This document shows, piece after piece, positions 22,699 to 62,053 of a stretch of DNA of 64,000 bases. Below the pieces are notes generated by a model. The model made no database searches. It was not told the DNA's origin and saw nothing but the letters and a program-made list of their open reading frames with translations. How positions within the stretch are numbered: the first letter of the stretch is position 1; each line of letters begins with the position of its first letter. The DNA lies in the IMG/VR virus record IMGVR_UViG_3300045988_161114, positions 96,001-160,000 of that record. One strand, given 5' to 3'. Both the position numbers and the translations under genes were made by a program. The DNA is from a virus.

Positions 22699-24361
22699 AG
22701 TGCTTATTACGTTCCTCCCAGTTTGCTTTGCCTACGCCAGCAGGCATAGATGCATAATCCAATGAATGGAATTGTCTTATTGTTGGGTCTGCATACTGTC
22801 TCTGTCTCAATCTTTGCTGATCTTCTCTTATTGCCTTAACCTTTAGGTCGTCATCATATGAATCCATAGATGCATACAGTCCTAGTGCAGCAACACCTAG
22901 TCCTAATACTCCATAACCCTTTTTAAAGTTGTCTGGAAGAAGTTCTCCTAAAACTGGGACATTTTTTATCTTAGTGTCGTATACCTTTTCTGCACCTTTT
23001 ATAAATTCTTTTTTAGGATCTTTCTTATTGGATTCTTCTATAAAAGCTCTTATATCAGATATGATAGTTTTACCAAGCAGGATAGATTCAACTGCGTCAT
23101 CGGCAATATTGGATATATTATCTATTGATGCCATGTCTGCATTTTTGATTATATCTATAAAATCATCTATATTGCCGTTTGACCTTTTCCATGCATCATC
23201 AAGATGTCTCTTTGCTGTAGTGTTGCCATACTTGTCAACCTCCTCCATAACTCGTTTTATGGACTCCTCTTTTGAGTCAGCATGTATATATTTGGGTACG
23301 GATATATTAGATTCTTCATTTGTTATATTATCGACTATGGTTATAACTGTATCACCAGCTCTACGTCTTGCATCAAATCTACCTGTCTCTTTATACTTCT
23401 GAATGTTTGATTTTAGGACTTTCATCCCCATAACTTCTCTAAGGTATGGCTCAGCTTCTCTCATTCTTGTAAATATATCTTTTGTTTCACTAGAGATATT
23501 CCCAGAAATAAGTTCTTCTCTTATAACATTCATGCGCTTAAAGATGGCATACTGCTGTCTTGCATCAGACATTGCTCCGTGTACCTCTTCCTCACCAAGC
23601 ATTAATTTTGAAAGGAAGTCTACATTATGACCAATTTTTGCATAAGACGTCGGAACTTTACCCTGTGCAGCAGCTTTTGTCAAAGTAGCTGCTGTAAAGT
23701 CCATAAGGTCTGCGACATAGAATCTGTTTTGTCCGGCAGGCATAGAAGATATCCTTCTATCTATCTTCTTATATGCTTCAATAACCCTATCGTAAGCCTT
23801 ATCACTAGCCCCTAGTGTCGTAGCATTTTTGGCTTCTTGTAAATGTCTACTTACCTCGGCAGGCCTGTATAATTGGTTAACTCTTTCACCGTTATACATT
23901 TGTGATTCTATCATATTAGCATGTATTGATAACTTATCAGATTCTGGTATTGATGATAGCCATCTTCTTTCGAATTGAGAGTTCTGAATAAGTATCATAC
24001 CTCTCTTGTTGCCGCCATTGCCAAATATATCCTCGTTGATATGTTTATGTATGTCAAATTGTCTGGAATGTCTATTATCAGATTCAAAGTATTTTCTTAC
24101 TGTTTCATTTGTATTGTAGAAATCTTTATCTTTTAAAGCATTCCATTCAGCTTTTTTATCTATTGAATTGTCAGGATCATAAAAGAATTCTTTGGCGATG
24201 CTATTGCCATTATTAGTGCCGTATGCACCAATGGACCAGACTCTTCCTTTACCAACAGTTCTTGTTACGCCATTATATTCTGACGTGATACTTCCGTTTG
24301 GGGTAAGAGATGTAGTCTCTATATCGAAAGATGTTATATATCGCCATAGATCATTGTTCAT
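22688..24361 (-). CDS. DEDDh (DnaQ-like) 3'-5' exonuclease domain protein with C-terminal hydrophobic anchor (557 aa)
   Basis: ExoI SFDIETTSL (D13, E15), ExoII QNSQFERRWL, ExoIII VHGAMSDARQ (H261-x4-D266). C-terminal GYGVLGLGVAALGLYASM. Confidence 0.7.
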   Translation of the reverse strand: MNNDLWRYITSFDIETTSLTPNGSITSEYNGVTRTVGKGRVWSIGAYGTNNGNSIAKEFFYDPDNSIDKKAEWNALKDKDFYNTNETVRKYFESDNRHSRQFDIHKHINEDIFGNGGNKRGMILIQNSQFERRWLSSIPESDKLSIHANMIESQMYNGERVNQLYRPAEVSRHLQEAKNATTLGASDKAYDRVIEAYKKIDRRISSMPAGQNRFYVADLMDFTAATLTKAAAQGKVPTSYAKIGHNVDFLSKLMLGEEEVHGAMSDARQQYAIFKRMNVIREELISGNISSETKDIFTRMREAEPYLREVMGMKVLKSNIQKYKETGRFDARRRAGDTVITIVDNITNEESNISVPKYIHADSKEESIKRVMEEVDKYGNTTAKRHLDDAWKRSNGNIDDFIDIIKNADMASIDNISNIADDAVESILLGKTIISDIRAFIEESNKKDPKKEFIKGAEKVYDTKIKNVPVLGELLPDNFKKGYGVLGLGVAALGLYASMDSYDDDLKVKAIREDQQRLRQRQYADPTIRQFHSLDYASMPAGVGKANWEERNKHYEY

Positions 24362-24804
24362 TTTATTTTATCCAGTATAGCTAAATATTCTTTATTATTT
24401 TTGAATAAATCATTTTCTGTTACGAATCTGAAGGACATATTTTTGCCTGTAGATTTTATTTTTCTTACCGCGGCCCTTGCTTTTAATTGCACATTTGGAT
24501 CCTTGAGCATTATAGTTGGTTTAACCTCACAAAGTTCCATTCTTCCGTCTTTGTACAATACAAGTACATCTGGAATGTATGTACGCTTCTTTAGGTCTAC
24601 ATCTACATATCGTATCTCTATTGGTTCTGAGAGATATTTAATTACATTAGGATCGGATTCTAGCTGTTCAAAGAAGGCATATTCATATGCTGAGCGGTAT
24701 TTCATATAAGATCTGTTCTTTACAGATTTATACATACCGCTTTTGTACATATCATTTTTATTGAAATATATTCCGTTATTTTTCTTGCTCTTTTTTCTTG
24801 GCAT
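24358..24804 (-). CDS. TnsA-N-like PD-(D/E)xK endonuclease (148 aa)
   Basis: YRSAYEYAFFEQLESDPNVIKYLSEPIEIRY followed by YIPDVLVLYKDGRMELCEVKP (D...ExK). Overlaps both neighbouring genes. Confidence 0.55.
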   Translation of the reverse strand: MPRKKSKKNNGIYFNKNDMYKSGMYKSVKNRSYMKYRSAYEYAFFEQLESDPNVIKYLSEPIEIRYVDVDLKKRTYIPDVLVLYKDGRMELCEVKPTIMLKDPNVQLKARAAVRKIKSTGKNMSFRFVTENDLFKNNKEYLAILDKIK

Positions 24805-33145: not shown

Positions 33146-36100
33146 ATGGCTAACACTATCAACACAATCAACTTCTTTGCTTCTCTTCCTGAAGATCGTC
33201 AAACTGCTATCAAAGAGGTGGCGAATCAACTGGTATCGGCAATTGGAACGGTTGCTACAAATGAACATAGAGATGTTAAAATCTCTGTACACGGCGTAGA
33301 GATTGCGATGCGCATTAAATCTGTATCGCGTAAAGGCAAAGCGTTTGTGACCTTTGTTAAGGGTCGCAATAACGGAGCAGCTCTTCAATTAATGGGCGCC
33401 CTTAAACTTGTAGAGGGTCGCAACTATGCAGTCAATAGGGTTCTTTGCAGTGGTTACGAGTCTTTCGTTAACAAATTCTTTATGTTAAATAAAGAAACCA
33501 CAATTGTTGAGAAGAAAAAAGAAGTTACTTTCCGTAAGGAAATCATCACTTCTGCGGAGGCATTCTTCGGTTTTGTTGTAAAATTGTCTTCCGATTCTAA
33601 AAACAAGATCGAAGATATTCTGGATGCTATGCGTCAACGTCCAGGTCTCAGATATGCGCCCGTATCACATATCATGCCGCGTGCTCAACTTGCCCAATAC
33701 CGCATTCCTGGTTGGGAGATTGAAACTGGTGAACTGGATAGCATGAATTTATCTCCAGACATCAATAGCAAGTTGGCGTCTATTGGTGCATTTAGCCAAG
33801 GCGCAGTTGATTCTATGGCTGCAGTGTTCGACAATGATATGACATACAGCATCAATGATAGCACTAAGTCAATCGCCCGTTTTGGATTGAATCCATCTGA
33901 ACATAAATCAGTATCTATAGGCGTTAAAAAAGTTGCAGTCATTGTAGGTGTCGATATGCCAGAAGGTTACAATCGTCTCAACGATAGCATCTATACTTCT
34001 ATTGTTGGCGGTGCTATACATGCCAACAAAAATGAGTACCTGAAATATGGTGCTGTCCGCGTCATCTCTGAGAACCATGCAAAAGGCGTGGCTGCCTTTA
34101 TTGGTGATGAGTTTGAGGCTGCTGCTAAAGAACTTGGCGTTCAATACATCACAGGCAAATTAAAATCCAAGTCTGTAGGCTTAGGATATAATCTTGTTAG
34201 CAATGGTAAAAGCCTGAAGGAGTTTATCATTGACCTGTACAACGATGCTGAATTCCGGGCTGAGGTAAACAACACTCTGGCTTCTTTTGTTAAAGAGGTT
34301 AAGATTGGCGGGCTTGTTTATAAAGTTATCATTATCAACGAAGAGCTGCATGTAACTTCTTTCTATTCCCTGGAGGGATGGGAATATACTGAGAAGTTCC
34401 TGAACAAGCAAGAGGATATCAAATCTCATGCCTCTATTGATGAGGCTGAGTTTGAATTATTGGGTGTTGAACAAATCGACGAGGATTCTTTATCCGAAGA
34501 GGAAATCGAGACTCTGAATGCTAGCAGCGTTATGAAATTGTTTATTGAAAGCATCAAAACCAACCCTGATTTCAAAGTAGGGGAAGAATTGCTTAATATG
34601 AAACGCGAAGGCCTGATCACTAAGAGCAAGAAAGTGGGCCGTATCTCTCTGTTGACCCTTGATTCTATTAAAGATCAATTTGGCGAAGAAGCCCTGAAGT
34701 CCTTCTTGGAGGCAAACATTGATAACTCATACCTGGTTGAGTCATCTATTATGACCAAAGACCTCTCTCCTCGTATTTATGAAGAGGGTGAAATCAAGTT
34801 CATCTTGAAAGAACTGTTTGATGATAGCATTGCTTATGCGGGTAACGGAACTCTGAAGGCAGGGAACTTTAAGTCTTATGGCAAGGACAAACAAATGATC
34901 TCCAACACGATCGATCGTTTGCTTAATGGTGATTCTTCAATTGGTTGGGTTGGTCTGACCAATACGGGGTTTACTATTGAGTTTGCTGGATACGATTTTG
35001 TGTTCCCAGCATGGGGCAAACTTAAAGGCCAGATCATTCTTCCTAATGAGGATGATTTGAGTGAGGGCCTTATTGGTGGCAAGCTGGTGGGCACTTTGAT
35101 GTCTATCTACCAAATGATCAAGTTCCAAAACAATAAAGGTGCTGTATTGACCTATGCCAAACATATGTTGACCTTAGAGCAACTGTTCTTGGGTAGCCGC
35201 ATTACCAAGATGCGTATGTCTAATAATGCGAACATGATACTGGTTCCACAAACAAAAGATCTGGTAAATGTATACACTACAAACAAGACTGTCCGCAAAG
35301 GTATCCAAGAAGATGGTCAGCTTGGCTATATCAAATACCCAGAATTGATGCTGCAATCATTCAAGTTGGTTAGCGCCAAGTCTGATACACCGTTCTGGAC
35401 ATCTTCTGAAGAATATTCTATTTTTGATATCCTGGAGGAGTCTGTTCTTCGCATTCCTCCAATGCTTGCTTTGTCCAACCAAGACGATTTCGACGGTGAT
35501 AGAGCCACCGTTTTCTTTGCTAAAGGTCTTGATGGTTACGATACCTGGACAACTGAACATACTCTTGGGAAAGATAATCTGATTGGTGCGTATCAGGCTG
35601 CATATGTTGCAGATGAAGAAGAGTCTTTGTTAAAAGGTTTGGATGTTATCAATGATAGCACTATTAAGTGCTATCCTGTTGAGGAGTTCCAAAGTGGTGT
35701 AGAAAAACTGGTTAAAGCTAAGCAGGATACCGGGAAATATACCAATGCCTTGGTTCAATCAATTCCACTGTTCGAAGCCATGACTGCTTTGAAAGACGGT
35801 TTATCTAAAGAAGAGGCACGTATTGCTATTGCCTCTATGGGTGTTGCCGTACAGAACGGTGCAATTTCACAAATGAAGCATGAGAATAGGGGTTATTCAC
35901 TTATCGATATGATGTACCTGTTCTCAGCTTCTGAGCGTAATGCACACGACGACTCTATCTCTTTGGCTGATGCTTGGGAAGAGGCAATTGAGTCTACAGT
36001 CGGCAACAAGGAAATGGCACGTCGCATCTCCACAATTATTGCTGAGAAGGCTCCACGTATCATCGAGCACAGCAACATGGTCAAACTTGGCAAAGTATAC

Positions 36101-36496
36101 AGTGAGGGTGAGTACGATTACTACAACCACTTCGGTACAAGAGCTACAGGTCTGGCTTTGTCTCGTATGGGGTTTGGCTCATACATGCAAAACCTTAATG
36201 GTGTGATCTATTCCTCTATTGATGGAACCGAAGAGGAAATCAAAGATTATGTAGATGCTACAATGTCTATTGGTCGTACATTTGATGACTTCTTCAAAGT
36301 GGTTGAGTCTCGTGGTACTAAGCACTCTACTGCTCCCAAAGCCAGCATCTACGGAGCAATAGGTATGTTCTTTGAAGCTGCCGAGAAAGCTGCCAAATCA
36401 TTGAAAGCTATCCAAGCAATCAATGTGTTTGCTGAGCGTGAGGCCTCTTCAACTGTTGAGGAACAAGCTTCAGCCTTGAATGACATGGGCTTCTAA
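33146..36496 (+). CDS. single-chain two-barrel (beta-like + beta'-like) RNA polymerase candidate A (1116 aa)
   Basis: Beta-like GAVRVISENHAKGVAAF (aa ~303-317). Beta'-like IKYPELMLQSF...VLRIPPMLALSNQDDFDGDRATVFF, with the Asp triad at nt 35486-35500. RBS AGAAAGGA. Confidence 0.7.
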   Translation: MANTINTINFFASLPEDRQTAIKEVANQLVSAIGTVATNEHRDVKISVHGVEIAMRIKSVSRKGKAFVTFVKGRNNGAALQLMGALKLVEGRNYAVNRVLCSGYESFVNKFFMLNKETTIVEKKKEVTFRKEIITSAEAFFGFVVKLSSDSKNKIEDILDAMRQRPGLRYAPVSHIMPRAQLAQYRIPGWEIETGELDSMNLSPDINSKLASIGAFSQGAVDSMAAVFDNDMTYSINDSTKSIARFGLNPSEHKSVSIGVKKVAVIVGVDMPEGYNRLNDSIYTSIVGGAIHANKNEYLKYGAVRVISENHAKGVAAFIGDEFEAAAKELGVQYITGKLKSKSVGLGYNLVSNGKSLKEFIIDLYNDAEFRAEVNNTLASFVKEVKIGGLVYKVIIINEELHVTSFYSLEGWEYTEKFLNKQEDIKSHASIDEAEFELLGVEQIDEDSLSEEEIETLNASSVMKLFIESIKTNPDFKVGEELLNMKREGLITKSKKVGRISLLTLDSIKDQFGEEALKSFLEANIDNSYLVESSIMTKDLSPRIYEEGEIKFILKELFDDSIAYAGNGTLKAGNFKSYGKDKQMISNTIDRLLNGDSSIGWVGLTNTGFTIEFAGYDFVFPAWGKLKGQIILPNEDDLSEGLIGGKLVGTLMSIYQMIKFQNNKGAVLTYAKHMLTLEQLFLGSRITKMRMSNNANMILVPQTKDLVNVYTTNKTVRKGIQEDGQLGYIKYPELMLQSFKLVSAKSDTPFWTSSEEYSIFDILEESVLRIPPMLALSNQDDFDGDRATVFFAKGLDGYDTWTTEHTLGKDNLIGAYQAAYVADEEESLLKGLDVINDSTIKCYPVEEFQSGVEKLVKAKQDTGKYTNALVQSIPLFEAMTALKDGLSKEEARIAIASMGVAVQNGAISQMKHENRGYSLIDMMYLFSASERNAHDDSISLADAWEEAIESTVGNKEMARRISTIIAEKAPRIIEHSNMVKLGKVYSEGEYDYYNHFGTRATGLALSRMGFGSYMQNLNGVIYSSIDGTEEEIKDYVDATMSIGRTFDDFFKVVESRGTKHSTAPKASIYGAIGMFFEAAEKAAKSLKAIQAINVFAEREASSTVEEQASALNDMGF

Positions 36497-47184: not shown

Positions 47185-47520
47185 ATGAAAAAATTGGCTA
47201 TCGTAATTGCCGCATCTTTCGTATTAACTGCCTGTAACCCTTTTAAAGGCGAAACAAATAATCGTATGTATATCAATTCAAATTATTGGATTGAATCATA
47301 TGTTGATCATGATAAAACTGTCTATCAAGAATGTGTAAATGATATGGTTCCCGGCAAAGAGGCAAAAGCTTTGTGCCGCCCAATTGACAAATCTCATTTT
47401 GAAGATATGCAATATCAGCATATTAATCACTCTATTGAGATGTCTAAAGCTGTAGATCGCAAAAATGATCGTGCAATTACAGCATTGGAACAATTGCCTG
47501 ATAAAAAGGCTTCTGAATAA
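47185..47520 (+). CDS. lipoprotein (111 aa)
   Basis: MKKLAIVIAASFVLTAC: signal peptide with lipobox L-T-A-C. ACGGAG RBS. Confidence 0.75.
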   Translation: MKKLAIVIAASFVLTACNPFKGETNNRMYINSNYWIESYVDHDKTVYQECVNDMVPGKEAKALCRPIDKSHFEDMQYQHINHSIEMSKAVDRKNDRAITALEQLPDKKASE

Positions 47521-47530
47521 AAGTTAAAAA

Positions 47531-47565
47531 TAATCGGCGCGATATTAGTGTCGATTATTTTTTGA
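47531..47565 (+). repeat. hairpin + T-tract cassette copy 16
   Basis: TAATCGGCGC gatatta GTGTCGATTA (2 G-T), then TTTTTTGA. Confidence 0.7.
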
Positions 47566-47588
47566 TTAAATTTTTTGGAATTTTTATC

Positions 47589-47915
47589 ATGAAATTTGTT
47601 TTTAAATCTACTTCGGAGTATGAAAAGAATGCTCCAGTATATGCTGTTCGTGTTTTTACACCAATTCAATCTGGTGTAACAGATGAAGACATTGATTGGC
47701 TTTTGTTTGAATCTTCAAAAGATCGTGATACTTATATTAAGTGTCACAAAGAGTCAATAGATTCCTATTTGAAATCATTGTCTGTAGAAGACCCTGAAAC
47801 TGAAGTGTTAACAACATGCCAACGGGCACATAAATTTGATACTACCATGAGTATTGAAAATTGTAAGAAATATATTGGCTATACGCCGCAATTTATTATT
47901 TCTTCTGTTGCTTAA
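47589..47915 (+). CDS. hypothetical protein (108 aa)
   Basis: TTTGGAA + ATG 47589, 32 nt after cassette 16. Confidence 0.65.
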   Translation: MKFVFKSTSEYEKNAPVYAVRVFTPIQSGVTDEDIDWLLFESSKDRDTYIKCHKESIDSYLKSLSVEDPETEVLTTCQRAHKFDTTMSIENCKKYIGYTPQFIISSVA

Positions 47916-47940
47916 TAATGCTATTTAATTGGAGACTAAA

Positions 47941-48195
47941 ATGGCATTTAAAATATGGTCTTTCCCCAAAAGCTATAATCCTATGCTCGGCAATATAAGC
48001 TATAAGGAATTTAATGCTTTTATGGAAAAAATTAAAAAACATCAATTAGAATACTTTACTTTAGGTAGTGCATTCTATATTGAATTCAAAATTGATAAGT
48101 TGTGCCCAAACGACGTACAGCTTCGAAAAGTTTTGTATTCTTTAAATGGTGGTCGCGCCATAGACTTTATTAAGTCTAACTTCAATTTAATTTAG
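47941..48195 (+). CDS. hypothetical protein (84 aa)
   Basis: TTGGAG RBS + 6 nt + ATG 47941. Confidence 0.7.
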   Translation: MAFKIWSFPKSYNPMLGNISYKEFNAFMEKIKKHQLEYFTLGSAFYIEFKIDKLCPNDVQLRKVLYSLNGGRAIDFIKSNFNLI

Positions 48196-48208
48196 AAAGG
48201 GCTTTAAA

Positions 48209-48724
48209 ATGAAAGCACAAAAAATTCAATTAAGTGTGGGCATGAATAAATATATGCCTTTGGAAATTGTTACTCATACTGGGAACAAAGGTTTCATTGG
48301 ATCTATTCTTTCAGATGGCCAAGTCGCTATGGCAATTGGCTTTGTTTATTCAAAAACTCATGGTAAGATGCCTGTAGCATGGAATATGTATGGTGAATCT
48401 ACCGATCGTGTTTCAGCACTCGGCCTTGGCGATATTAAGCCAACTAAAGATCTCTGTATTAAAGAAATTATTACAAAGATTCCCAAAGAGCCAAAAGAAA
48501 CTGACGTTTTCAAACAAGCATTTGGTGCAATTAGCAAAGCTAATGGTGCCGAATCTAAAGCTGAAAAAAATCATTCAATTGACACTTTGCCTCAAGAAAT
48601 TCAGGCTCATTTGTCTGAATTATTTAGCAAATTAGGCGATGGTGTTGAAGTTAAAGCGTACATGGTGGATTCAGAAGGTAATCTTGTTAGCCTTGATAAA
48701 CCTGAAAACGAAACCGTACACTGA
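48209..48724 (+). CDS. hypothetical protein (171 aa)
   Basis: AGAAAGGG RBS upstream of the ATG. Confidence 0.7.
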   Translation: MKAQKIQLSVGMNKYMPLEIVTHTGNKGFIGSILSDGQVAMAIGFVYSKTHGKMPVAWNMYGESTDRVSALGLGDIKPTKDLCIKEIITKIPKEPKETDVFKQAFGAISKANGAESKAEKNHSIDTLPQEIQAHLSELFSKLGDGVEVKAYMVDSEGNLVSLDKPENETVH

Positions 48725-48814
48725 AACAGATCGTAAGTGAAAAAACAACAAAATGGACTAACGCCACATCGTTGGTACGATTAGCTTCCATTTGAGATTT
48801 CCGATAGATAGGTT

Positions 48815-48859
48815 TGTGCGTTTTCCTTAAAAACGTACACCTCCATTTCTTTTTTTTGA
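48815..48859 (+). repeat. hairpin + T-tract cassette copy 17 (variant arms)
   Basis: TGTGCGTTTT cctta AAAACGTACA (10 bp, 1 G-T), then CCTCCATTTCTTTTTTTTGA. 38 nt upstream of ATG 48877. Confidence 0.55.
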
Positions 48860-48876
48860 AAGTTTATTTATTTAAA

Positions 48877-49218
48877 ATGACTCAAACTAAAAAGGCCAAA
48901 GCACACGTTCGACGTGCCTTTGACCACAAATCTAAATCTAAACCTAAATTTGATGGCATTAAAGTGCCGAAAGTTGGTGATGATTTGATTATTGACATCA
49001 AACCTGTTTTGGATCAATTTGGTCCGACTGGTGTATATGAAAAATGCACTGGTAAAGGCGTTGGTGATGAAATTCTGACACGTAAGATTGTTTCGGTTGT
49101 TCAAATCGGAACTAAGCGCTTCGCAGTACGCGATTTTGCGCGTGAATTCTGGGTTGTGTACCCTAAAGGTGGTGCATGGTACCCGGATAAAAACCAACGT
49201 GTTCATTACGAAAATTAA
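48877..49218 (+). CDS. basic protein (113 aa), nucleic-acid-binding candidate
   Basis: MTQTKKAKAHVRRAFDHKSKSKPKFDG... GC-richer codon usage. Internal ATG 48877. Confidence 0.6.
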   Translation: MTQTKKAKAHVRRAFDHKSKSKPKFDGIKVPKVGDDLIIDIKPVLDQFGPTGVYEKCTGKGVGDEILTRKIVSVVQIGTKRFAVRDFAREFWVVYPKGGAWYPDKNQRVHYEN

Positions 49219-49528
49219 TGCATTAAATTGCATAAATTGACGTAAAAAGCAATCAAAATTTGTATGCATCTATTTATATCGGGTTTACATTCGGTATAAG
49301 TGGTGCATACAAAAACAAAACTTTGTAGAATATTGAAATATAAAGAAATATTCTTATGTAAAAGTTTATTAAGAAGTGTATGCAATTTAAATAGCTCAAT
49401 AAGCATGTAGTCATGCATCGGGTATATCAAACGACTTTTTTAACTGGGCCAAAGCATATTTTGTGTACATTTCTTAATGAGCTTTTGCTCATTTATTGCC
49501 GTAAAGGTGATATTTATTAAGATCGTTT

Positions 49529-49560
49529 GGACGCGGGTTCGACTCCCGCCAACTCCACCA
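49529..49560 (+). ncRNA. ssrA: tmRNA acceptor-piece 3' end (T-arm + acceptor 3' strand + ACCA)
   Basis: GGAC GCGGG TTCGACT CCCGC CAACTCC ACCA, nearly identical to the E. coli SsrA 3' end as I recall it. Confidence 0.85.
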
Positions 49561-49677
49561 AAAGACATTTCAAAGATGTTGATACTCTGAAAAGAGTTAG
49601 CGATTCCATATAGCCTATTTTTAACCCTATTACATTATTGCGATTGAGTTAAAATGTCTTATGAGATGTCTTCTGAT

Positions 49678-49760
49678 GGGGTTGTAATGGAATTCGACAG
49701 GCGGTGAATAGGGATATTGCTCGGCACGAGTTGCTTCGTAAAAGCAAAATTAAAATAAAT
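49678..49760 (+). ncRNA. ssrA: tmRNA coding-piece 5' region (acceptor 5' strand, D-analog, PK1-like)
   Basis: GGGGTTG pairs 7/7 with CAACTCC, including G3-U. TAATGGAATTCGAC. UUGCUU...GUAAAAGCAA pseudoknot-like pairing. Confidence 0.75.
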
Positions 49761-49799
49761 GCAAACGATGATGTTTACATGGTACGCGCCGCTGCCTAA
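49761..49799 (+). other. tmRNA tag reading frame ANDDVYMVRAAA + UAA
   Basis: AAAAUAAAU|GCA AAC GAU GAU GUU UAC AUG GUA CGC GCC GCU GCC UAA. Same context as the E. coli resume codon (..AUAGUC|GCA AAC GAC..). Confidence 0.6.
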
Positions 49800-50032
49800 T
49801 TTAGGTAGTTGAGCATAAATGTACAGGGTTTGGACAGTACCTGGTAACAGAAACTGTCCGAGAATTCTAACACTGCGGCTAGTGCACAGTGAGTTTCGTA
49901 ATCGTCTACGATTGGGTAGAGCTGGAATCGTAACCAGCAATTATAAAAGAGTAAATATGTTTGGGCATACCTAGTAACCAACTAGTGAAATTTAAACAAG
50001 CATATATTTTGTGGAAATAACTTAACCATATA

Positions 50033-50052
50033 TCGGTATATACCGACTTTTT
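50033..50052 (+). terminator. weak hairpin + T-run, possible end of the tmRNA transcript
   Basis: TCGGT atat ACCGA, then CTTTTT. Confidence 0.4.
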
Positions 50053-50781
50053 GCATGAGTTTTAAATACCTTAAGAATCGAATTTTGTGGTGACTACTTA
50101 CAGAATTTAAGGTTTCAGGACATGTTTACTCCTTTATGATTCAACCCCCCGCAGCTCTAAGGTGTTTCAACCTTAAATTGATGGTGCATACCATTGTCCT
50201 TTCTTGACAGCATAGCAATTTATATTAGTTGCTATTTGGCTCATCAGCAACGGAAAGACGGCCTGATGAAAACAAATTTATGTAGTACGTCTTACCTGTA
50301 GTATACCCTAAGACGTGCTATTAAATCAACTGTACTAGGCAAGCTAGGATGAGCTGAATGCAGTTGTAAAACCTTGGGTAGTCCTAGAAATCCAGCTATG
50401 GGTTGACCAAAAATAGCATTTATGGTAATAATGGGTCCGTCTCCTGCCCTGAGCCATACGACCAATGATATCATTAAGGCATTCGATATTATGTCGTTAA
50501 ACTACTATACTTATTGCGTAGTAGAAAGAAATGCCTAGATCGCTATAAAATGCGATCGAATCGTTAAACCTTGCCGAGGTACTATATCGGCCCTTCTAGG
50601 ATGAAGAGCTACATCCTAGTATGTGTTCATTGATGTGATAGGCCCTACCAACTTCGCCGACTCACTTATAGCTCAATCTCAGACTTGTCTGACTATTCCG
50701 TCTTTGGATTATGGACGGAAAGAGTGAGTTTACGACCGGCGATTCCGGAGTAATACCACTCTAATAATGATCCACTGAATA
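50053..50781 (+). ncRNA. candidate second large structured RNA / cis element downstream of the tmRNA (ORF-free, hairpin-dense)
   Basis: The only ORF of 60 aa or more here is one 60-aa antisense ORF (50292-50474). Stable hairpins at 50285-50318 (10 bp), 50538-50557, 50596-50619 (8 bp) and 50696-50720 (7 bp). Confidence 0.3.
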
Positions 50782-50825
50782 GCGTCGGCGCACTTTATGT
50801 GACGCCGGCGCATTCTTTATTTAAT
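50782..50825 (+). repeat. hairpin + T-rich cassette copy 18 (GC-rich variant)
   Basis: GCGTCGGCGCAC tttat GTG(A)CGCCGGCGC (12 bp, 1 bulge), then ATTCTTTATTTAATT. Confidence 0.55.
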
Positions 50826-50886
50826 TAATTTATACAAGATGCTATTTTATTGGTATTTTATATAAATTCTTTATTGAGGAATAATA

Positions 50887-51078
50887 ATGGTTGTATGTGT
50901 TTGTAATAATGTTAGCACCAACACGATCAATAAAGATTATATTGATTTAAATAAAAGTGTTGATGATCTTATTATTGACACAGGTGCAACTATGTGTTGT
51001 GGAAAATGTGCTGATTATATTAATTGTATGTTTTCTGAAAAAGTTTTGTTAGTGCCATCTCTCCAACTGGACTCCTAA
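50887..51078 (+). CDS. bfd: BFD-like [2Fe-2S]-binding protein (63 aa)
   Basis: MVVCVCNNVSTNTI...GATMCCGKCADYI matches the CxC...CxxC pattern and spacing of bacterioferritin-associated ferredoxin. GAGGA RBS. Confidence 0.7.
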   Translation: MVVCVCNNVSTNTINKDYIDLNKSVDDLIIDTGATMCCGKCADYINCMFSEKVLLVPSLQLDS

Positions 51079-51173
51079 GGGTATGATGTTCTGCCCTCAT
51101 ATGGTATTATCATATGTTGCCTATTTTTAATAGGAAGAACAAATTCTTTTTTAATCATTATGGAGGATTAAAG

Positions 51174-51590
51174 TTGAAGAAGAAAATACTTGCTATACTA
51201 TTAGCACTACCATCTGTTAGTTTTGCCAAAGAAATTAAATGTTTATCAGAAATGGCTTACTATGAGGCTCGCGGCGAAGGCACTCATGGTATAAAAGTTG
51301 TTACAGATGTAATGTTTAATAGAATGAAAAGCAATCAATTCCCTGATGGAGTTTGTGCTAATTTTAGAAAAAGTGGTCAATATTCTACGGCTAAAATGGC
51401 CGGAGGAAGAAAAGACCAAGAGTTGTATAAAAAGGTTTCAGAACAAGTTGAATCTGAATATGCCAAATATCGTTTAGGTGATTGGCAAGACTCTACTAGT
51501 GGAAGTCTTTATTTTAATTCTAATGGATCACGTCCATCCAATAAAGTAAAATTTAAAGGGAAACGTGGAAGACATTTTCTTTATGGATAG
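51174..51590 (+). CDS. secreted SleB/CwlJ-type cell-wall hydrolase (endolysin candidate, 138 aa from TTG)
   Basis: GGAGGA + 6 nt + TTG 51174 gives the signal peptide MKKKILAILLALPSVSFA. LSEMAYYEARGEGTHGIKVVTDVMFNRMKSNQFPDGVC...GQYS is the Hydrolase_2-type motif. Confidence 0.7.
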   Translation: MKKKILAILLALPSVSFAKEIKCLSEMAYYEARGEGTHGIKVVTDVMFNRMKSNQFPDGVCANFRKSGQYSTAKMAGGRKDQELYKKVSEQVESEYAKYRLGDWQDSTSGSLYFNSNGSRPSNKVKFKGKRGRHFLYG

Positions 51591-51661: not shown

Positions 51662-54600
51662 ATGTACATTCGCTTAAAAGACATTCCAGTAATTGATGCT
51701 GATGCTACAGTTGCGGAGGTTTATGAAATTTATTCTAAACAGTTGCCACAGGATCCAAGACTTAATTGGAAACTGTTGCAAGATCGTATTGCAATGGAAA
51801 TTGTAAATGAGATTTCTGAACCGACTACAATTGAGATTCCTAAATCTTTTTATGATCTCAAATTGAATTGGCCTGAATTTTTGTTTGCAACCAAACATAT
51901 TGACAGCAGTTCTGACATTGAATTGATGAGTCATCATGAACTTATGTTTATGATGTTGTATGAACGCCTTGAATCTTTGTTCAAGTATGATCAACTCTTT
52001 ACTGAATTGATTCGCAAAGACATCAATTATGTCAAGAACCATGTATTGTATGTAACAAGTAATGCATACAATGCTGCTTTGAAAGAATCTTCTGAACTTG
52101 TTATTATTTCTCCTTATAATGAGTACAGTAAAGTTTTGACATATTTGCATCAAGATAAAGTTATGGGCGACGCATTGCCCATGTTGTTTAATCCATCCGA
52201 TCGTGCTATTAAGACTTCTGCATTATATTTTAATGTATTGCCCGGAAGTGAATCAATGCTTGCTGAATCTAATAAAATTATCATTTCTAAAAACGGTAAA
52301 GAGTTTCAGGCTCCTGGATTCCAAGTATTTAAAGATGAAAACGGTGGCTTTGTAGGTTATTCAAGTTTGTTCAAAGTTGGACAGTCTTTGCCTGCCCGTT
52401 TCAAGACTCATCTTAATGGTAATGCATTTGGTGTAAGCAATCCTTCTAAGTTCATCTTTTTACAGGATGCAATTGAAAAGGATGGTGAATTAATCACTAA
52501 GGATAATACCTTAGTTGATGCAGTAATGGTTTATAACGATATTGAATTGGAATCGTATCGTTTAGTAGGCGGCGAAATTGAAGTATCGCCTAAAGTAGGC
52601 AAAGAAATTGTGTTCACTCCTCGTCATATTGAAACTGAATTTGATGAGATTGATGTAAAAGTTGGACAGACTATTTACAGCAAAGGTGGGTACATTAAAA
52701 TTGGTTCACGTGGCGGTGAAGCAATTTATATCGAAATGGTAGACCATATTCAGGTTACTTCTATTGAAGAATCGGGATATAATGGGTCCGCCCGCATTGA
52801 TTATATTGCCTACTATAAAGCTGGTAATGCCCGTATTACAAGCCAAACTGGCTTGAAAGGTGTTACTAAAACTATGCGCAGTTGTGGCAAAATCAAGATT
52901 CATGAAGATGGCAAAGAAGATAAAATCATCGACGTGGATATTGTAGCTGGTATTAATAGCCTTAAAGGTAAAATGAATACTATTCGTCTTGCTCAAGCAG
53001 CTTTTGCATTTAAATATGGCTATTATACCAATGATAAAGATTACCTCGACAGTCTTAATGAAGAGGAAATCAATGCCGCTGTTGCGTCATTGCCTACTGC
53101 AACTTATGAAAAACGTATTAAACGTGTTGATGGTTATGATGATGAAATTATTGTAATTGAAAACGTTAAATACGGCCTGGTTCAGTATTCTTACACTGAA
53201 TTGGGTAGCCATTTTGCTAAGATTAAGAATCAAGGCATGTCATTTAATTGTTTGAAATATATTTGTCAAACAACAGATTCATCTCTTGGACAATATATTT
53301 TAGATAATTGTATTGATAAATCTGATAAGCAAATTGTTGAAGAATTGGCAAAAATCTTGTCAGATGAAGGTCATGTATTTGAATACGCTGATAATTATCC
53401 GTCATATACATTGATTGAATTGAAGTCAATGTTTAATGAACAGGACTTAATCTTGAGTCGTTCTGCTATTATTCCTACTAGCAGTAAATTGTTGGATCCT
53501 GAATTCAATAAAGGTTTCTATATCGACTTAAGTAAGGTTCGTTCTGGTACAAGTATTCGTGTACCATCTGCAGAGATTTTAAATAAATTCTGCGGTAAGC
53601 AAAATGATGGTCAATATGTATATCCAACTATGCTTATTGAATTGTCTAAAATCATTCGTGCAGCAATTGCTGGCCCTAGCCAGTATTTTACTATTGCGCC
53701 GCATCGTAATGAACGTAATCATAAGCGTCCTTCCGCATGGAATGGCTATTTGAATGCAATTAAATCAATGCTGTATCGTACTGAATTAGGTGGTCAAACT
53801 TATGTTAAATCACTTATTCAGCCAAGTCTCAAAGGTGTCAACCTTAAACAGGTTCATGATAAATATGTTCCTGAAGGCAAAGTCGTAATTCTTGATCGTA
53901 ATATTCTTGAGAGTATTCGTGAGTATATTTATGGCAAGCCTAATAATAAGACAACTGAAGAGGCAATGCTTGACCAGTTCCGTCCATTAAATGCATTTAC
54001 TTTGCGTAATCCGTTTTTATGGCGTTCACAGATGATTATTTCCCAACTTTGGGGAATTGATGAATTCAATGATTATCTTCAGGAGAATTATGGAATGACT
54101 GTCAATGATTATCTGGATGTACAGGGAAATCTGCATTGCGCTTTGATTTCTACTGAAATTGTAAGACGTAGCCATAGCGACAATGATGGCGACTTATTGC
54201 AAATTAGTTCAATACCAGGAATTGAGCAACAAGAAATGATGGCTCAATTCAAATTGGAATACTTTACTGAAGATCAAAAACAGTGGGATGAAGACTTCTT
54301 GTTGTCTGAGTATTCATCTATTGAAGATGTTGATTGGAGTAAAAAGTACGAATTGTATTATGTTCCAATTTATCCTAAGCATCCTGGTGATAATGCTTAT
54401 ATGGAATTTCTATGTTCATCAGCTATGGCTAAGAATGCAGTTGGTCCTGGTACAAATGATGCATGGGTATTTTACATGTTAGTTCAGCTGTATTATGGAC
54501 TGGCGCGTGATAATGATCCTAAATCGTATGTACCTTGGGAACGTAAACGTAAAGTACAACTTCGTATTAAAGAAGAAGACTTGTTTACTTATGACCATAT

Positions 54601-55048
54601 TTATACAATGGTTCTTGAAAATCGTGTAATTAATGCGATTAAACATGTGTCAGGTGGAGCTAGCTCTCATGCTGTCTTCTACCTCAAAAACATGACAAAA
54701 GACGACAAGAGTGTTAAAAAGGTAATTAAAAGTATCGAGAATGACTTAGGTTATTCAAGAGAAGTTGCCGTTTCTATTTGTCGTATTGTAAATTGGGCAG
54801 TTAATACCAATGCACTTGAAATGTGTAATAAGTTTTTACGCATGCACAATAAAGGTGCCCTAGTTGATCTAGGTGATGCGGATATTCAGATGTGGTTTAA
54901 ACACATTGTTGATTATACGTTCTTTGGCAGTATGCTTGCACCGATTTTTACCATTTATGGTCAAAGTCAAGGATTAATTCCTTTAGGCGAAAATGCAGAA
55001 AATAATGTGGCCGAAGTTATGGACACTTTTGACGCAATTGGTTTTTAA
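51662..55048 (+). CDS. single-chain two-barrel (beta-like + beta'-like) RNA polymerase candidate B (1128 aa)
   Basis: Beta-like AGNARITSQTGLKGVTKTM and IIDVDIVAGINSLKGKMNTIRLAQA. Beta'-like LRNPFLWRSQMIISQLW...HCALISTEIVRRSHSDNDGDLLQI, with the Asp triad at nt 54179-54193. Confidence 0.7.
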   Translation: MYIRLKDIPVIDADATVAEVYEIYSKQLPQDPRLNWKLLQDRIAMEIVNEISEPTTIEIPKSFYDLKLNWPEFLFATKHIDSSSDIELMSHHELMFMMLYERLESLFKYDQLFTELIRKDINYVKNHVLYVTSNAYNAALKESSELVIISPYNEYSKVLTYLHQDKVMGDALPMLFNPSDRAIKTSALYFNVLPGSESMLAESNKIIISKNGKEFQAPGFQVFKDENGGFVGYSSLFKVGQSLPARFKTHLNGNAFGVSNPSKFIFLQDAIEKDGELITKDNTLVDAVMVYNDIELESYRLVGGEIEVSPKVGKEIVFTPRHIETEFDEIDVKVGQTIYSKGGYIKIGSRGGEAIYIEMVDHIQVTSIEESGYNGSARIDYIAYYKAGNARITSQTGLKGVTKTMRSCGKIKIHEDGKEDKIIDVDIVAGINSLKGKMNTIRLAQAAFAFKYGYYTNDKDYLDSLNEEEINAAVASLPTATYEKRIKRVDGYDDEIIVIENVKYGLVQYSYTELGSHFAKIKNQGMSFNCLKYICQTTDSSLGQYILDNCIDKSDKQIVEELAKILSDEGHVFEYADNYPSYTLIELKSMFNEQDLILSRSAIIPTSSKLLDPEFNKGFYIDLSKVRSGTSIRVPSAEILNKFCGKQNDGQYVYPTMLIELSKIIRAAIAGPSQYFTIAPHRNERNHKRPSAWNGYLNAIKSMLYRTELGGQTYVKSLIQPSLKGVNLKQVHDKYVPEGKVVILDRNILESIREYIYGKPNNKTTEEAMLDQFRPLNAFTLRNPFLWRSQMIISQLWGIDEFNDYLQENYGMTVNDYLDVQGNLHCALISTEIVRRSHSDNDGDLLQISSIPGIEQQEMMAQFKLEYFTEDQKQWDEDFLLSEYSSIEDVDWSKKYELYYVPIYPKHPGDNAYMEFLCSSAMAKNAVGPGTNDAWVFYMLVQLYYGLARDNDPKSYVPWERKRKVQLRIKEEDLFTYDHIYTMVLENRVINAIKHVSGGASSHAVFYLKNMTKDDKSVKKVIKSIENDLGYSREVAVSICRIVNWAVNTNALEMCNKFLRMHNKGALVDLGDADIQMWFKHIVDYTFFGSMLAPIFTIYGQSQGLIPLGENAENNVAEVMDTFDAIGF

Positions 55049-57998: not shown

Positions 57999-58439
57999 AT
58001 GTCTTGTACTGTATATTTATACACAGATGGAGCATGCAAAGGCAATCCTGGTCCTGGAGGATGGGGATACCTTTTGAAATGTGGTGAAAAATCTATACAT
58101 GATTCTGGTTCTGAAAAGGACACTACGAATAATCGTATGGAATTAATGGCGGTTATTAATGGCTTATCTAAGCTTAACCAATTTTGTAATGTAATCATTT
58201 CTACTGATTCCCAATATGTTAAAAACGGAATGGAAGAATGGATACATAATTGGAAAAAGAATGGCTGGAAAGGTTCCAATAAAAAACCTGTTAAGAATGT
58301 TGATTTATGGCAAAGGCTTGATACTTTAGTTCAAAAATTTAATGTTTCTTGGGAATGGGTTAAAGGTCATTCCGGCCATACTGAAAATGAATTTGTTGAT
58401 ACTCTAGCTAGCAATGCAGCAGAATCAATTAAGGATTAA
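57999..58439 (+). CDS. rnhA: ribonuclease HI (146 aa)
   Basis: YTDGACKGNPGPGGWG...TNNRMELMA...STDSQYV...WIHNWKKNGW...KPVKNVDLWQRL...WEWVKGHSGHTENE is close to E. coli RnhA along its whole length. Confidence 0.9.
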   Translation: MSCTVYLYTDGACKGNPGPGGWGYLLKCGEKSIHDSGSEKDTTNNRMELMAVINGLSKLNQFCNVIISTDSQYVKNGMEEWIHNWKKNGWKGSNKKPVKNVDLWQRLDTLVQKFNVSWEWVKGHSGHTENEFVDTLASNAAESIKD

Positions 58440-60577: not shown

Positions 60578-62053
60578 ATGAAAAAGACTTTTATTGCATT
60601 TGCTTTAGCCGCATTTATTACTCCTGCATTTGCTGTAAATACTACTTATGGTAGTGATCAAAATGTAGACGGTAATTATAATGTAACTACTGGTCAGAAA
60701 TTGATTGTTGCTGGTCAAGGCAATACAGTAACCGGAGTAGATATTATTACTGCCGGTGATTCTAATGTAGTATCCGGTATTCATAATATTGTTGATGGTA
60801 AAATCAATGTCGTATCTGGTCATAATGCTGCTGCAAAAGGCAACATGTCTGTAGCAATCGGTCAACGCGCTGAAGCTTACAATAGCATGGTTACTGCCGT
60901 AGGTTCTGACACTAAAGGTCTTGGTGAATCATCTGTAGCTCTTGGTAAGGGTGCTACAACTGGTGAAGAAGCTAAAGCTTCTACTGCAGTAGGTCCACAT
61001 GCTACTGCTATGTCTCCTTCTGCATTTGCTGGTGCTTTACATGCTTATGCTGGTGGTGCACAATCTGTAGCATTGGGTCAAAGCAGCCAATCTATGGGTG
61101 AAAAATCTACTGCCATTGGTTCTGGTGCACAAGCTTTGGAACGCTTCTCTACTGCTGTAGGTGGCAATGCTGTTGCTACCAATCAACATGATGTCGCTTT
61201 GGGTTTCGGTTCCAAAACAACTGGTGCTGTTGGCACTGCTACATCAGAAATTAATGGTGTTAAATATGGCACTTATGCCGGTCATCGCCCTACAAGCGAA
61301 TTAAGTGTTGGTAGTGAAGGCTGGGAACGCAATGTAACCAATGTTGCAGCCGGTCGTATTACTAAAACCTCTACCGATGCCGTTAATGGCAGTCAGCTTT
61401 TCGCCGTTGCTAATCAAGTTGGTGAAAATACCAAAGGTGTTGAAGCCAATAAGAAAGCAATTGCCGAATTGGGTGATGTTGTAGCTATTAATGCCGGCAA
61501 TATTGAAGCCAATACTCAACAAATCACTACTTTGAACCATACTGTTCAACAGCAAAACACTTGGAACGAAGCTCAAGATGGTCAAATCAATGAGCTGCAT
61601 GGCAATGTTGGTGTCAATTCTGAACGTCTGGATAATCTGACTGCTCTGGTTAAAGGTATGGGTGCTAACGAAGCAATCCTGCGTAAAGAAATGCACGATC
61701 TTCGCCGTGAATCTCGTGCCGGCATTGCTGGTGCTAATGCTATTGCTGGCATTCCGCAACCACACGCTCCTGGACAAACTGCATTTGGCGTTGGTGCTGG
61801 TTATTTCAAACACGAAGGTGCAGTAGCTTTGGGCGTTTCCCACATTTCCAACTCTGGTAAGTGGGTCACCAAGGCTGGTGTCAATTTTGACACCCGTAAA
61901 AATGTTGGTGCGACAATTGGTTTGAGTTATGTATTGGGAGGCGTTCCTGTTGTAGCTCCTGCTCCTGTTGTAATTCATAAAACTGAAGTTGTTGAAAAAG
62001 TAATCGTACGTGAAGTAGCGCCGGTTCCTGCACAAGTAAAAGTGCGTCAATAA
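60578..62053 (+). CDS. trimeric autotransporter adhesin, YadA-like (491 aa)
   Basis: Signal peptide MKKTFIAFALAAFITPAFA. Head repeats (SVALG.., STAIGSGA.., STAVGGNA..). Neck ERNVTNVAAGRITKTSTDAVNGSQLFAV. Coiled-coil stalk. Anchor AGIAGANAIAGIPQ...GVGAGYFKHEGAVALGVSH...GATIGLSYVLG. Confidence 0.9.
   Translation: MKKTFIAFALAAFITPAFAVNTTYGSDQNVDGNYNVTTGQKLIVAGQGNTVTGVDIITAGDSNVVSGIHNIVDGKINVVSGHNAAAKGNMSVAIGQRAEAYNSMVTAVGSDTKGLGESSVALGKGATTGEEAKASTAVGPHATAMSPSAFAGALHAYAGGAQSVALGQSSQSMGEKSTAIGSGAQALERFSTAVGGNAVATNQHDVALGFGSKTTGAVGTATSEINGVKYGTYAGHRPTSELSVGSEGWERNVTNVAAGRITKTSTDAVNGSQLFAVANQVGENTKGVEANKKAIAELGDVVAINAGNIEANTQQITTLNHTVQQQNTWNEAQDGQINELHGNVGVNSERLDNLTALVKGMGANEAILRKEMHDLRRESRAGIAGANAIAGIPQPHAPGQTAFGVGAGYFKHEGAVALGVSHISNSGKWVTKAGVNFDTRKNVGATIGLSYVLGGVPVVAPAPVVIHKTEVVEKVIVREVAPVPAQVKVRQ

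Follow-up and report, generated by a model that had tools for sequence, protein, structure and literature searches.

A permuted tmRNA gene in a viral contig

We analyzed a 64-kb stretch of DNA (64,000 nucleotides [nt]; here called the window) that covers positions 96,001 to 160,000 of the IMG/VR virus record IMGVR_UViG_3300045988_161114 and that contains a predicted gene for a transfer-messenger RNA (tmRNA). The two parts of this gene lie in permuted order: the CCA end of the acceptor piece is encoded upstream, at 49560, and the 5' G of the coding piece lies downstream, at 49678. ARAGORN called a single gene in the window, a permuted tmRNA (49468-49890) whose tag is ANDDVYMVRAAA. Two Rfam 15 models matched the same locus: tmRNA_permuted (RF04321) scored 115.8 bits (gathering score, 47; E = 6.8e-22), and alpha_tmRNA (RF01849) scored 104.8 bits (gathering score, 50; E = 1.5e-27) with model positions 1-355 fully covered. 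In a permissive Rfam rescan, alpha_tmRNA was the only model of the tRNA clan that was kept, and four lower-scoring overlapping matches to the clan were dropped. It is important to note that, at these 105 to 116 bits, the models join the upstream acceptor piece and the downstream coding piece into one structure, including the P2 helices that bridge the two.

An earlier sequence-only reading of this stretch had proposed a permuted tmRNA at this site and had named ARAGORN and Rfam as checks; both call a permuted tmRNA, with scores far above the thresholds. Reading positions 49200-50400 directly, segment by segment, we found every element that it had listed, each at the coordinates it had given. 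It had also held that no second T-arm and CCA follow the coding piece. We searched both strands of the 64 kb with regular expressions, one for a 5-bp T-arm followed by a 7-nt acceptor strand and NCCA, the other for a GGGG..TTCGAC 5' end, and each pattern occurred exactly once. The T-arm and CCA are therefore present in one copy only, and a canonical second 3' domain downstream of the coding piece was found on neither strand of the window by this search.

Architecture of the tmRNA unit

The architecture of the unit was taken from the Rfam structure lines and from an unconstrained thermodynamic fold of the precursor at 49440-50052 (RNAfold/RNAcofold), and the two sources agree. The T-arm, acceptor stem, and P2 helices were recovered by the thermodynamic fold alone, without constraints. 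The features are as follows (PK1 and PK2, pseudoknots 1 and 2).

49448-49458, plus strand: possible leader strand GCCAAAGCATA, which could pair with a trailer at 49956-49966 (hypothetical, from the minimum free energy fold)
49476-49493, plus strand: 5' hairpin of the acceptor piece, AATGAGC-TTTT-GCTCATT, aligned to the hairpin that opens the structured part of the alpha_tmRNA model
49497-49529, plus strand: P2 5' strands of the acceptor piece, pairing with 49698-49726 of the coding piece (RF04321 structure line and fold)
49529-49532, plus strand: GGAC (read directly)
49533-49549, plus strand: T-arm GCGGG-TTCGACT-CCCGC (direct reading and Rfam), invariant in all variants
49550-49556, plus strand: 3' acceptor strand CAACTCC (direct reading and Rfam)
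49557-49560, plus strand: discriminator A and encoded CCA, the predicted mature 3' end of the acceptor piece
49561-49677, plus strand: 117-nt intervening segment (spacer), predicted to be excised; a long hairpin in the fold
49678-49726, plus strand: start of the coding piece, with the 5' acceptor strand, a D-loop analogue (TAATGGAATTCGA), and the P2 3' strands (direct reading and Rfam)
49678-49684, plus strand: 5' acceptor strand GGGGTTG (read directly)
49727-49747, plus strand: PK1-compatible pseudoknot; stem 1 (CGAG/TTCG) is modeled by RF04321, stem 2 (TTGC/GCAA) is a complementarity only
49761-49799, plus strand: tag reading frame GCA...GCC TAA (ARAGORN; Rfam alignment to the consensus resume region AUAAaUGCaAACGA)
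49792-49808, plus strand: stop-codon hairpin CTGCCTA-ATT-TAGGTAG, seven pairs, invariant (fold)
49824-49859, plus strand: PK2-type (H-type) pseudoknot with stems CAGG/CCTG and GGACAG/CTGTCC and core ACCTGGTAACAGAAAC (alpha_tmRNA alignment)
49860-49970, plus strand: conserved 3' domain of the coding piece, with further hairpins or pseudoknots and an approximate 3' end
50033-50052, plus strand: terminator-like hairpin TCGGTATATACCGA and T-run (consensus scan), kept in all variants

The acceptor stem formed by GGGGTTG and CAACTCC is paired at all seven positions, and its third pair is the G-U (G3-U70). P2 consists of three stacked helices that bridge the acceptor and coding pieces, and in the fold the hairpin of the spacer places the CCA end beside G49678. 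In the alpha_tmRNA alignment, the PK2 core ACCTGGTAACAGAAAC falls, with high posterior probability, on the 3'-terminal part of the model, whose consensus there is ACCuGGCAACAGAAac. The hairpin with T-run at 50033-50052 likely marks the end of the transcription unit, and it coincides with the position, 50052, at which the earlier reading had let the unit end.

Just upstream of the unit, at 49417-49440 (plus strand), lies a motif, ATCGGGTATATCAAACGACTTTTT, that resembles the downstream terminator ATCGGTATATACCGACTTTTT (50031-50052). We considered it as a repeated phage signal and ruled this out, as the window holds a single copy; the motif may terminate the preceding gene or mark the boundary of an inserted module. 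A scan for sigma-70-type promoters found sites no more frequently than in shuffled sequence and none directly upstream of the tmRNA gene.

The tag frame at 49761-49799 reads GCA AAC GAT GAT GTT TAC ATG GTA CGC GCC GCT GCC TAA, that is, 12 codons from the resume codon GCA at 49761 to the stop codon TAA at 49797-49799. Compared with the translated consensus of the alpha model (ANDNYAPVALAA), the tag is of equal length, also starts with AND, and retains Ala-Ala at its end. The one deviation of the tag end is in the antepenultimate residue, which is Ala and not Leu or Val. The tag had been called atypical; this is right for its RAAA end, but with an alpha-consensus length, an AND start, and terminal Ala-Ala, it is only mildly so.

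Variation among related genes

We aligned seven distinct variants of the gene, recovered from IMG/VR and a metagenome collection, and imposed a 76-pair structure on the alignment. Across the 76 proposed pairs, 97.7% of the cells were standard pairs, compared with 36 to 44% when the partners were slid by 1 to 3 columns. Two pairs changed in a compensatory manner: acceptor pair 5 (49552/49682), which is AU or, in four of the seven variants, GC, and a pair in the outer P2 helix (49499/49724), in which CG became UA. The G3-U pair was kept in all seven. A further 13 pairs changed on one side and were still paired (GU to AU or GC), with 10 of them in P2 and the 5' hairpin and 3 in the tentative leader-trailer helix. 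All seven pairs of the 5' hairpin (49476-49493) were paired in every variant, two one-sided changes there keeping a GU. The 21 P2 pairs were paired in 93 to 100% of cases, eight of them with one-sided changes that maintain pairing (one in the outer, four in the middle, and three in the inner helix). Within the tmRNA helices, unpaired cells occurred only in middle P2; four of these adjoin a one-base insertion, and with the register shifted by it, pairing is restored; the remaining one is in the variant on contig L026.

The leader-trailer helix (49448-49458/49956-49966), as predicted by the fold, is possible: 7 of its 11 pairs are invariant, 3 show one-sided changes with a wobble kept, and 1 is always mismatched. 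For PK1 and PK2, the complementary segments are present and all pairs are invariant in the seven variants, so that there is no covariation signal either way. In a shuffle control, the number of compensatory pairs was reached in 62 of 500 shuffles, and the number of compensatory cells and the covariation score were reached in 1 of 500 only.

The reading frame of the tag and its stop codon are intact in all variants. The frame carries two synonymous and two nonsynonymous changes, giving the tags ANDDVYMVRAAA, ANDNVYMVRAAA, and ANDNVYMVCAAA, and one variant ends in ...VCAAA.

We then compared divergence along the unit between the window and a related contig, L001. The adjacent gene for a 1,128-amino-acid (aa) protein has diverged by 10.3% at the nucleotide level, and 24% of the codons that encode the same amino acid differ. 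The spacer has diverged by 10.3% as well, about the overall nucleotide rate of the neighboring gene, and the tRNA-like and P2 parts by 7 to 9% with structure preserved. In contrast, the domain at 49800-49970 has diverged by 1.7%, approximately sixfold below the neighboring gene, and only 4.1% of its columns are variable compared with 10 to 27% elsewhere in the unit. This contrast, with a slow 3' domain and a spacer that drifts at the rate of the neighboring gene, is what would be expected if the RNA is functional and its spacer is excised and under weak constraint. Moreover, the preserved helices, the slow 3' domain, and the drifting spacer together form a pattern such as purifying selection on RNA structure would leave. 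We are highly confident that the phage gene is genuine and maintained by selection and that it encodes a two-piece (circularly permuted) tmRNA of the alpha type.

Phage context and host clues

Genes for a major head protein (10878-12101) and a large terminase (19634-21583) lie in the minus-strand half of the window. Among cultured phages, the nearest relative is the Acinetobacter jumbo phage vB_AbaM_ME3 (ME3), with 40% identity between the two terminases; the 1,128-aa protein encoded just 3' of the tmRNA has a counterpart region in ME3 at 28.5% identity. Sequences closely related to the window were found on contigs of 177 to 186 kb from several independent assemblies, among them one of 185.7 kb (ena:ERZ27319930:k141_778654), which is consistent with a genome of ~186 kb, and the retrieved flanks of related contigs hold phage-like genes only. 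Most open reading frames (ORFs) of the window have no Pfam match, and no recognizable bacterial housekeeping genes were found among the scanned window proteins. The gene belongs to a phage genome and not to a bacterial chromosome or a prophage junction; from the gene layout, a location in the phage early region is plausible. With this context, the ARAGORN and Rfam calls, and conservation with compensatory changes in seven variants, the proposal of a permuted, two-piece-type phage tmRNA with an atypical tag is borne out.

Among the 25 window ORFs of 120 to 200 aa, none matched SmpB (PF01668) in Pfam, with about two-thirds of the genome lying outside the window. As phage SmpB was not found in the scanned ORFs, the phage RNA would depend on host SmpB. 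No integrase-type Pfam match was found in the scanned neighboring ORFs at 48209-48724, 48814-49218, and 51114-51590.

According to a paper, one IMG data set that holds a near-identical contig is a human-fecal coassembly; a wastewater metagenome yielded a relative at greater distance. The window also encodes an RNase HI (57999-58439, plus strand; 170 bits against Pfam) whose nearest named cellular homologues are from Neisseriaceae (Eikenella and Kingella; 66 to 67% identity). The type of the RNA had been taken as a hint at the host lineage. The evidence does not support this: the RNA is alpha type, but the host of ME3 is Acinetobacter, the RNase HI is nearest to Neisseriaceae, and the OM43 phage Melnitz carries an alpha-type RNA in a host that is not an alphaproteobacterium (PMC9004378). 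The host clues from ME3 and RNase HI point, weakly, away from Alphaproteobacteria, and for annotation, tmRNA type alone should not serve for host inference.

Several other genes of the window were recorded. The ORF at 60578-62053 (plus strand) encodes a YadA-like trimeric autotransporter adhesin, in which head, stalk, and membrane-anchor domains were recognized. Among its 120 closest homologues, out of thousands, nearly all lie on phage-sized contigs (~60, 150, 185, and 250 kb), with a few annotated as Caudoviricetes; the protein yields no conclusion about the host. Two proteins of ~1,120 aa (33146-36496 and 51662-55048, both plus strand) have no Pfam or PHROG match, and the ME3 counterpart of the second is a region annotated as several ORFs and, in one record, as an endonuclease. 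Inside the structural and packaging block, a 148-aa ORF at 24358-24804 (minus strand) has a TnsA-like endonuclease N-terminal domain and may be a homing-type or mobile nuclease.

Distribution and origin of the gene

The tmRNA-bearing contigs all belong to one lineage and are at least 94% identical. For homologues of the 1,128-aa protein, identity drops from ~94% directly to 38 to 47%. In the relatives at 38 to 47% (L006-L011), no tmRNA was found within 6 to 8 kb on either side of the syntenic gene, as far as the contigs extend (ARAGORN for all; Rfam for L006 and L008-L010). Further, the segment at 47560-50886, with four small ORFs, the tmRNA, and an ORF-free stretch, has no counterpart in these relatives by tblastn, and its flanks are syntenic there (47185-47520 on one side; the BFD-like ORF, the hydrolase, and the 1,128-aa protein on the other). 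This 3.3-kb segment is a hypervariable accessory island. Because relatives at 38 to 47% lack a tmRNA near the syntenic site and the segment has no counterpart in them, the tmRNA appears to have been acquired specifically within this lineage, in an accessory region that varies. The transfer was probably horizontal and fairly recent, with an alphaproteobacterium or an alphaproteobacterial phage as the donor.

A scan of 185,579 GTDB species genomes with an exact pattern of the 5' tRNA-like domain gave, by way of a donor, two unrelated standard tmRNAs and chance matches only. The exact pattern of the PK2 core returned this phage and one chance match from a metagenome contig collection (JGI). Neither the 5' tRNA-like sequence nor the PK2 core of the phage gene was thus found in a bacterial tmRNA among the GTDB representatives and JGI metagenomes; exact-pattern scans miss homologues with a single mismatch, and absence from them is weak evidence. 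Among GenBank phages, blastn hits were limited to ~40 to 60 nt of the T-arm/acceptor part and came from five records (four other phages); judging by this search, no isolate phage carries a similar tmRNA. ME3 is absent from the published list of tmRNA-bearing GenBank phages (PMC9004378), and its genome paper used tRNAscan-SE only.

Proposed function and alternative explanations

The explanation that best accounts for these results jointly is a genuine, selected alpha-type two-piece tmRNA in the accessory region of a ~186-kb phage, with the processing, tagging, and origin proposed here, and we consider this combination likely. As for its role, we lean toward a canonical tagging tmRNA that would work with host factors. 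A single precursor would be transcribed, ending at the hairpin at 50033-50052. Host RNase P would cleave 5' of G49678, and host tRNA 3'-end processing would expose the CCA at 49560, with loss of the spacer; permuted precursors are processed by tRNA-processing enzymes (PMC11915505). The two pieces would be held together via acceptor and P2 pairing. Host alanyl-tRNA synthetase (AlaRS) would charge the RNA via G3-U70, and together with host SmpB and EF-Tu it would enter stalled ribosomes. Translation would resume at GCA and append ANDDVYMVRAAA, freeing the ribosome, and the nascent chain would probably be marked by this tag for host proteases. The phage may benefit in that ribosomes are kept free during the degradation of host mRNAs in infection; similar benefits have been suggested for Melnitz (PMC9004378) and for huge phages (PMC7162821).

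Several points weigh against this interpretation. Compatibility with host SmpB, AlaRS, and RNase P is assumed, and the Pfam scan of the 25 window ORFs with lengths of 120 to 200 aa gave no SmpB. The pseudoknot pairs never vary, so that they are supported by complementarity and model similarity only. All variants come from one species-level lineage, and covariation is thin, with 2 compensatory pairs, a count that 62 of 500 shuffles match. A bacterial donor was not found by the exact-pattern scans. Finally, the antepenultimate residue of the Escherichia coli ssrA tag contributes to ClpX recognition, and we speculate that an AAA end instead of LAA or VAA could weaken recognition by ClpXP-type proteases.

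A rival idea is a functional RNA with a noncanonical role, as a competitor or modulator of host trans-translation. Such an RNA might rescue ribosomes with a poorly recognized tag, replace host tmRNA that is depleted or attacked, or titrate SmpB. The Ala in place of Leu or Val at the antepenultimate position, and the variant ending in ...VCAAA, would fit this role. So would the host itself: with phage SmpB not found in the scanned window ORFs, the host's protein must be used or competed for, and a beta- or gammaproteobacterial host, as is weakly suggested, would own a one-piece tmRNA to which the phage RNA is a foreign type. Yet the features of ordinary tagging are all kept (G3-U, the context of the resume codon, a 12-codon frame of alpha length, and terminal Ala-Ala), the tag frame is conserved across variants, and no sequence feature demands a noncanonical role, which leaves it unlikely in our view. 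We are similarly doubtful about a proposal built on the mismatch of types, in which a host with a one-piece tmRNA (e.g., a beta- or gammaproteobacterium) would receive an alpha-type two-piece tmRNA with an RAAA or CAAA end, imported in a small RNA-gene island together with the structured stretch at 50053-50886 (with tRNA-Ile(UAU) in some variants), and rescue during infection would be reprogrammed to escape or redirect tag-dependent proteolysis instead of supplementing what the host already has.

The gene might instead be a nonfunctional passenger, a piece of alphaproteobacterial or phage DNA recently captured in a hypervariable region, its decay pending. Its confinement to one species-level lineage, its absence near the syntenic site in the relatives at 38 to 47%, its location in the 3.3-kb lineage-specific segment, and the lack of SmpB among the scanned window ORFs all agree with this. 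The rates do not: 24% of synonymous codons in the neighbor gene have changed, yet the tmRNA 3' domain has diverged by 1.7%, changes in the helices keep pairing, two of them by compensation, and the spacer drifts at about the overall nucleotide divergence of the neighbor gene. We regard a passenger as quite improbable. Least credible, to the point that we give it hardly any weight, is a standard tmRNA with its true 3' domain farther downstream and an attachment (att)-type duplicate of a tmRNA 3' end at 49529-49560, or else a false positive of the program. ARAGORN permuted calls can be wrong, the GenBank phage matches were limited to short T-arm/acceptor hits, and tmRNA genes are common integration sites of which phages often carry 3' fragments (PMC9004378, PMC11915505). 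However, covariation is seen in the acceptor-stem and P2 pairs by which the two halves are joined, the Rfam models span both pieces and the bridging P2, and an integrase-type match is absent from the three adjacent ORFs scanned. A hidden standard gene or an att-site fragment was ruled out by the single T-arm/CCA and single 5' end in the window.

Comparison with known tmRNAs

The ssrA gene of Caulobacter crescentus, reportedly described by Keiler, Shapiro, and Williams in 2000, is said to be the prototype of the alphaproteobacterial two-piece tmRNA. With this class (RF01849), the phage gene shares the order of acceptor piece, intervening segment, and coding piece, a 5' hairpin before P2, a bridging P2, the T-arm, an acceptor stem with G3-U, and an encoded CCA. 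The resume region consensus AUAAaUGCaAACGA, a 12-codon tag starting AND, and the PK2 core ACCUGG(C/U)AACAGAAAC are also common to both. The phage gene differs from the class in being phage encoded, in its spacer, which has a ~90-nt insertion relative to the Rfam alpha model, in the RAAA end of its tag compared with the LAA of the model, and in its AT-rich composition (40% GC).

Two-piece tmRNAs have been described in other phages. Melnitz carries an alpha-type two-piece ssrA, Pelagibacter phage Mosig and other marine myophages have two-piece tmRNAs, and among 133 unique phage tmRNA structures, 53 two-piece genes, mostly marine, were called by ARAGORN (PMC9004378). The permuted calls include those in Stenotrophomonas phages Moby and Mendera, Citrobacter phage Mordin, and Streptomyces phage BRock (PMC9004378, Table S1). 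We found another permuted tmRNA on two unrelated IMG/VR viral contigs (L013:1734-2257, minus strand; L014:298-821, plus strand), beside tRNA-Asn and tRNA-Thr, with the tag DDYYFEDFALAA, a spacer of ~200 nt, and an RF04321 score of 81.3 bits; it did not reach the threshold of the alpha model. In view of these cases, some of them nonmarine, the opinion in the sequence-only reading that a permuted tmRNA is unusual in a phage is not supported. The marine viral tmRNA of L013 and L014 was considered as a close relative of the window gene and rejected, since it aligns poorly and shows weak similarity only.

The gene in the window and the published phage two-piece tmRNAs are alike in being permuted, in occurring in large phages, and in being of alpha type, possibly regardless of host class, as in Melnitz. 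Both lie among small nonstructural genes and are found in only part of their phage group. Unlike the marine T4-like myophages, this phage belongs to an orphan group of ~186 kb with a distant relationship to ME3, and one related contig is fecal and a more distant one is from wastewater, neither being marine. Rfam detected no glutamine riboswitch here. Relative to the phage tmRNAs in GenBank, similarity is confined to the T-arm.

A 2025 tmRNA database lists 79 unique phage sequences and 11,946 permuted entries (PMC11915505), and huge phages carry tmRNA, some of them also SmpB (PMC7162821). The standard one-piece tmRNAs of cluster C mycobacteriophages, Lak megaphages, and the huge phages of Al-Shayeb et al. 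2020 (PMC7162821) share with the gene described here a presumed purpose, that is, a phage-supplied rescue RNA in a large genome with other translation-related genes. In contrast to them, this gene is permuted, and SmpB was not found in the scanned window ORFs. With the ssrA-fragment attP sites of temperate phages that insert into the tmRNA gene, which usually adjoin an integrase gene, it has in common the tmRNA 3' end (T-arm, acceptor strand, and CCA), whereas here the gene is full, with a 5' half, a tag, and a pseudoknot domain, it is structurally constrained, and no integrase was found in the scanned flanking ORFs.

What sets the gene apart is the phage lineage near ME3, the fecal and wastewater setting of the related contigs, the long spacer, and the RAAA end; phage two-piece tmRNAs as such were known. 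The gene opens no new class, and standard tools (ARAGORN and Rfam) find it. It does provide a well-supported case of a phage, in this instance a large, uncultured one that recurs in metagenomes, with a foreign-type ribosome-rescue RNA outside the marine systems of the first description. If the RNA is active, it would be a natural test of whether an alpha-type two-piece tmRNA works with the SmpB, AlaRS, and RNase P of another host, as well as of whether a degradation tag is tuned by phages. The 90% cluster of the neighboring protein has 236 member sequences and offers material for a population-level study of the RNA; the hydrolase protein of the window had no entry in the assembly index.

A predicted structured region downstream of the tmRNA

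Between the tmRNA terminator and the next ORF lies a stretch of ~0.8 kb (50053-50886, plus strand) with no ORF longer than 60 aa on either strand. Its plus strand folds far more stably than shuffled sequence (z = -7.4, compared with z = -2.6 for the minus strand), and it ends with a strong GC hairpin and T-run at ~50783-50830. Across eight variants, 12 predicted pairs change in a compensatory manner, and hairpin tips are swapped whole with the stems kept. In two variants, one cassette is replaced by a gene that ARAGORN calls as tRNA-Ile(UAU) (L026:2062-2135 and L028:1076-1149, approximately window 50685-50775), and the window has a different hairpin pair in its place. Comparison with Rfam gave chance-level hits only and no family, and the stretch is confined to the same phage lineage as the tmRNA. 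The stretch appears to be an uncharacterized structured RNA region, either acquired along with the tmRNA or evolving alongside it, and it may be the more original lead of the two.

The ORF that follows (50887-51078, plus strand) encodes 63 aa with a CxC...CxxC motif and is conserved beside the cell wall hydrolase in relatives; its homologue on a related contig has a weak Pfam match to Fer2_BFD, a [2Fe-2S]-binding domain.

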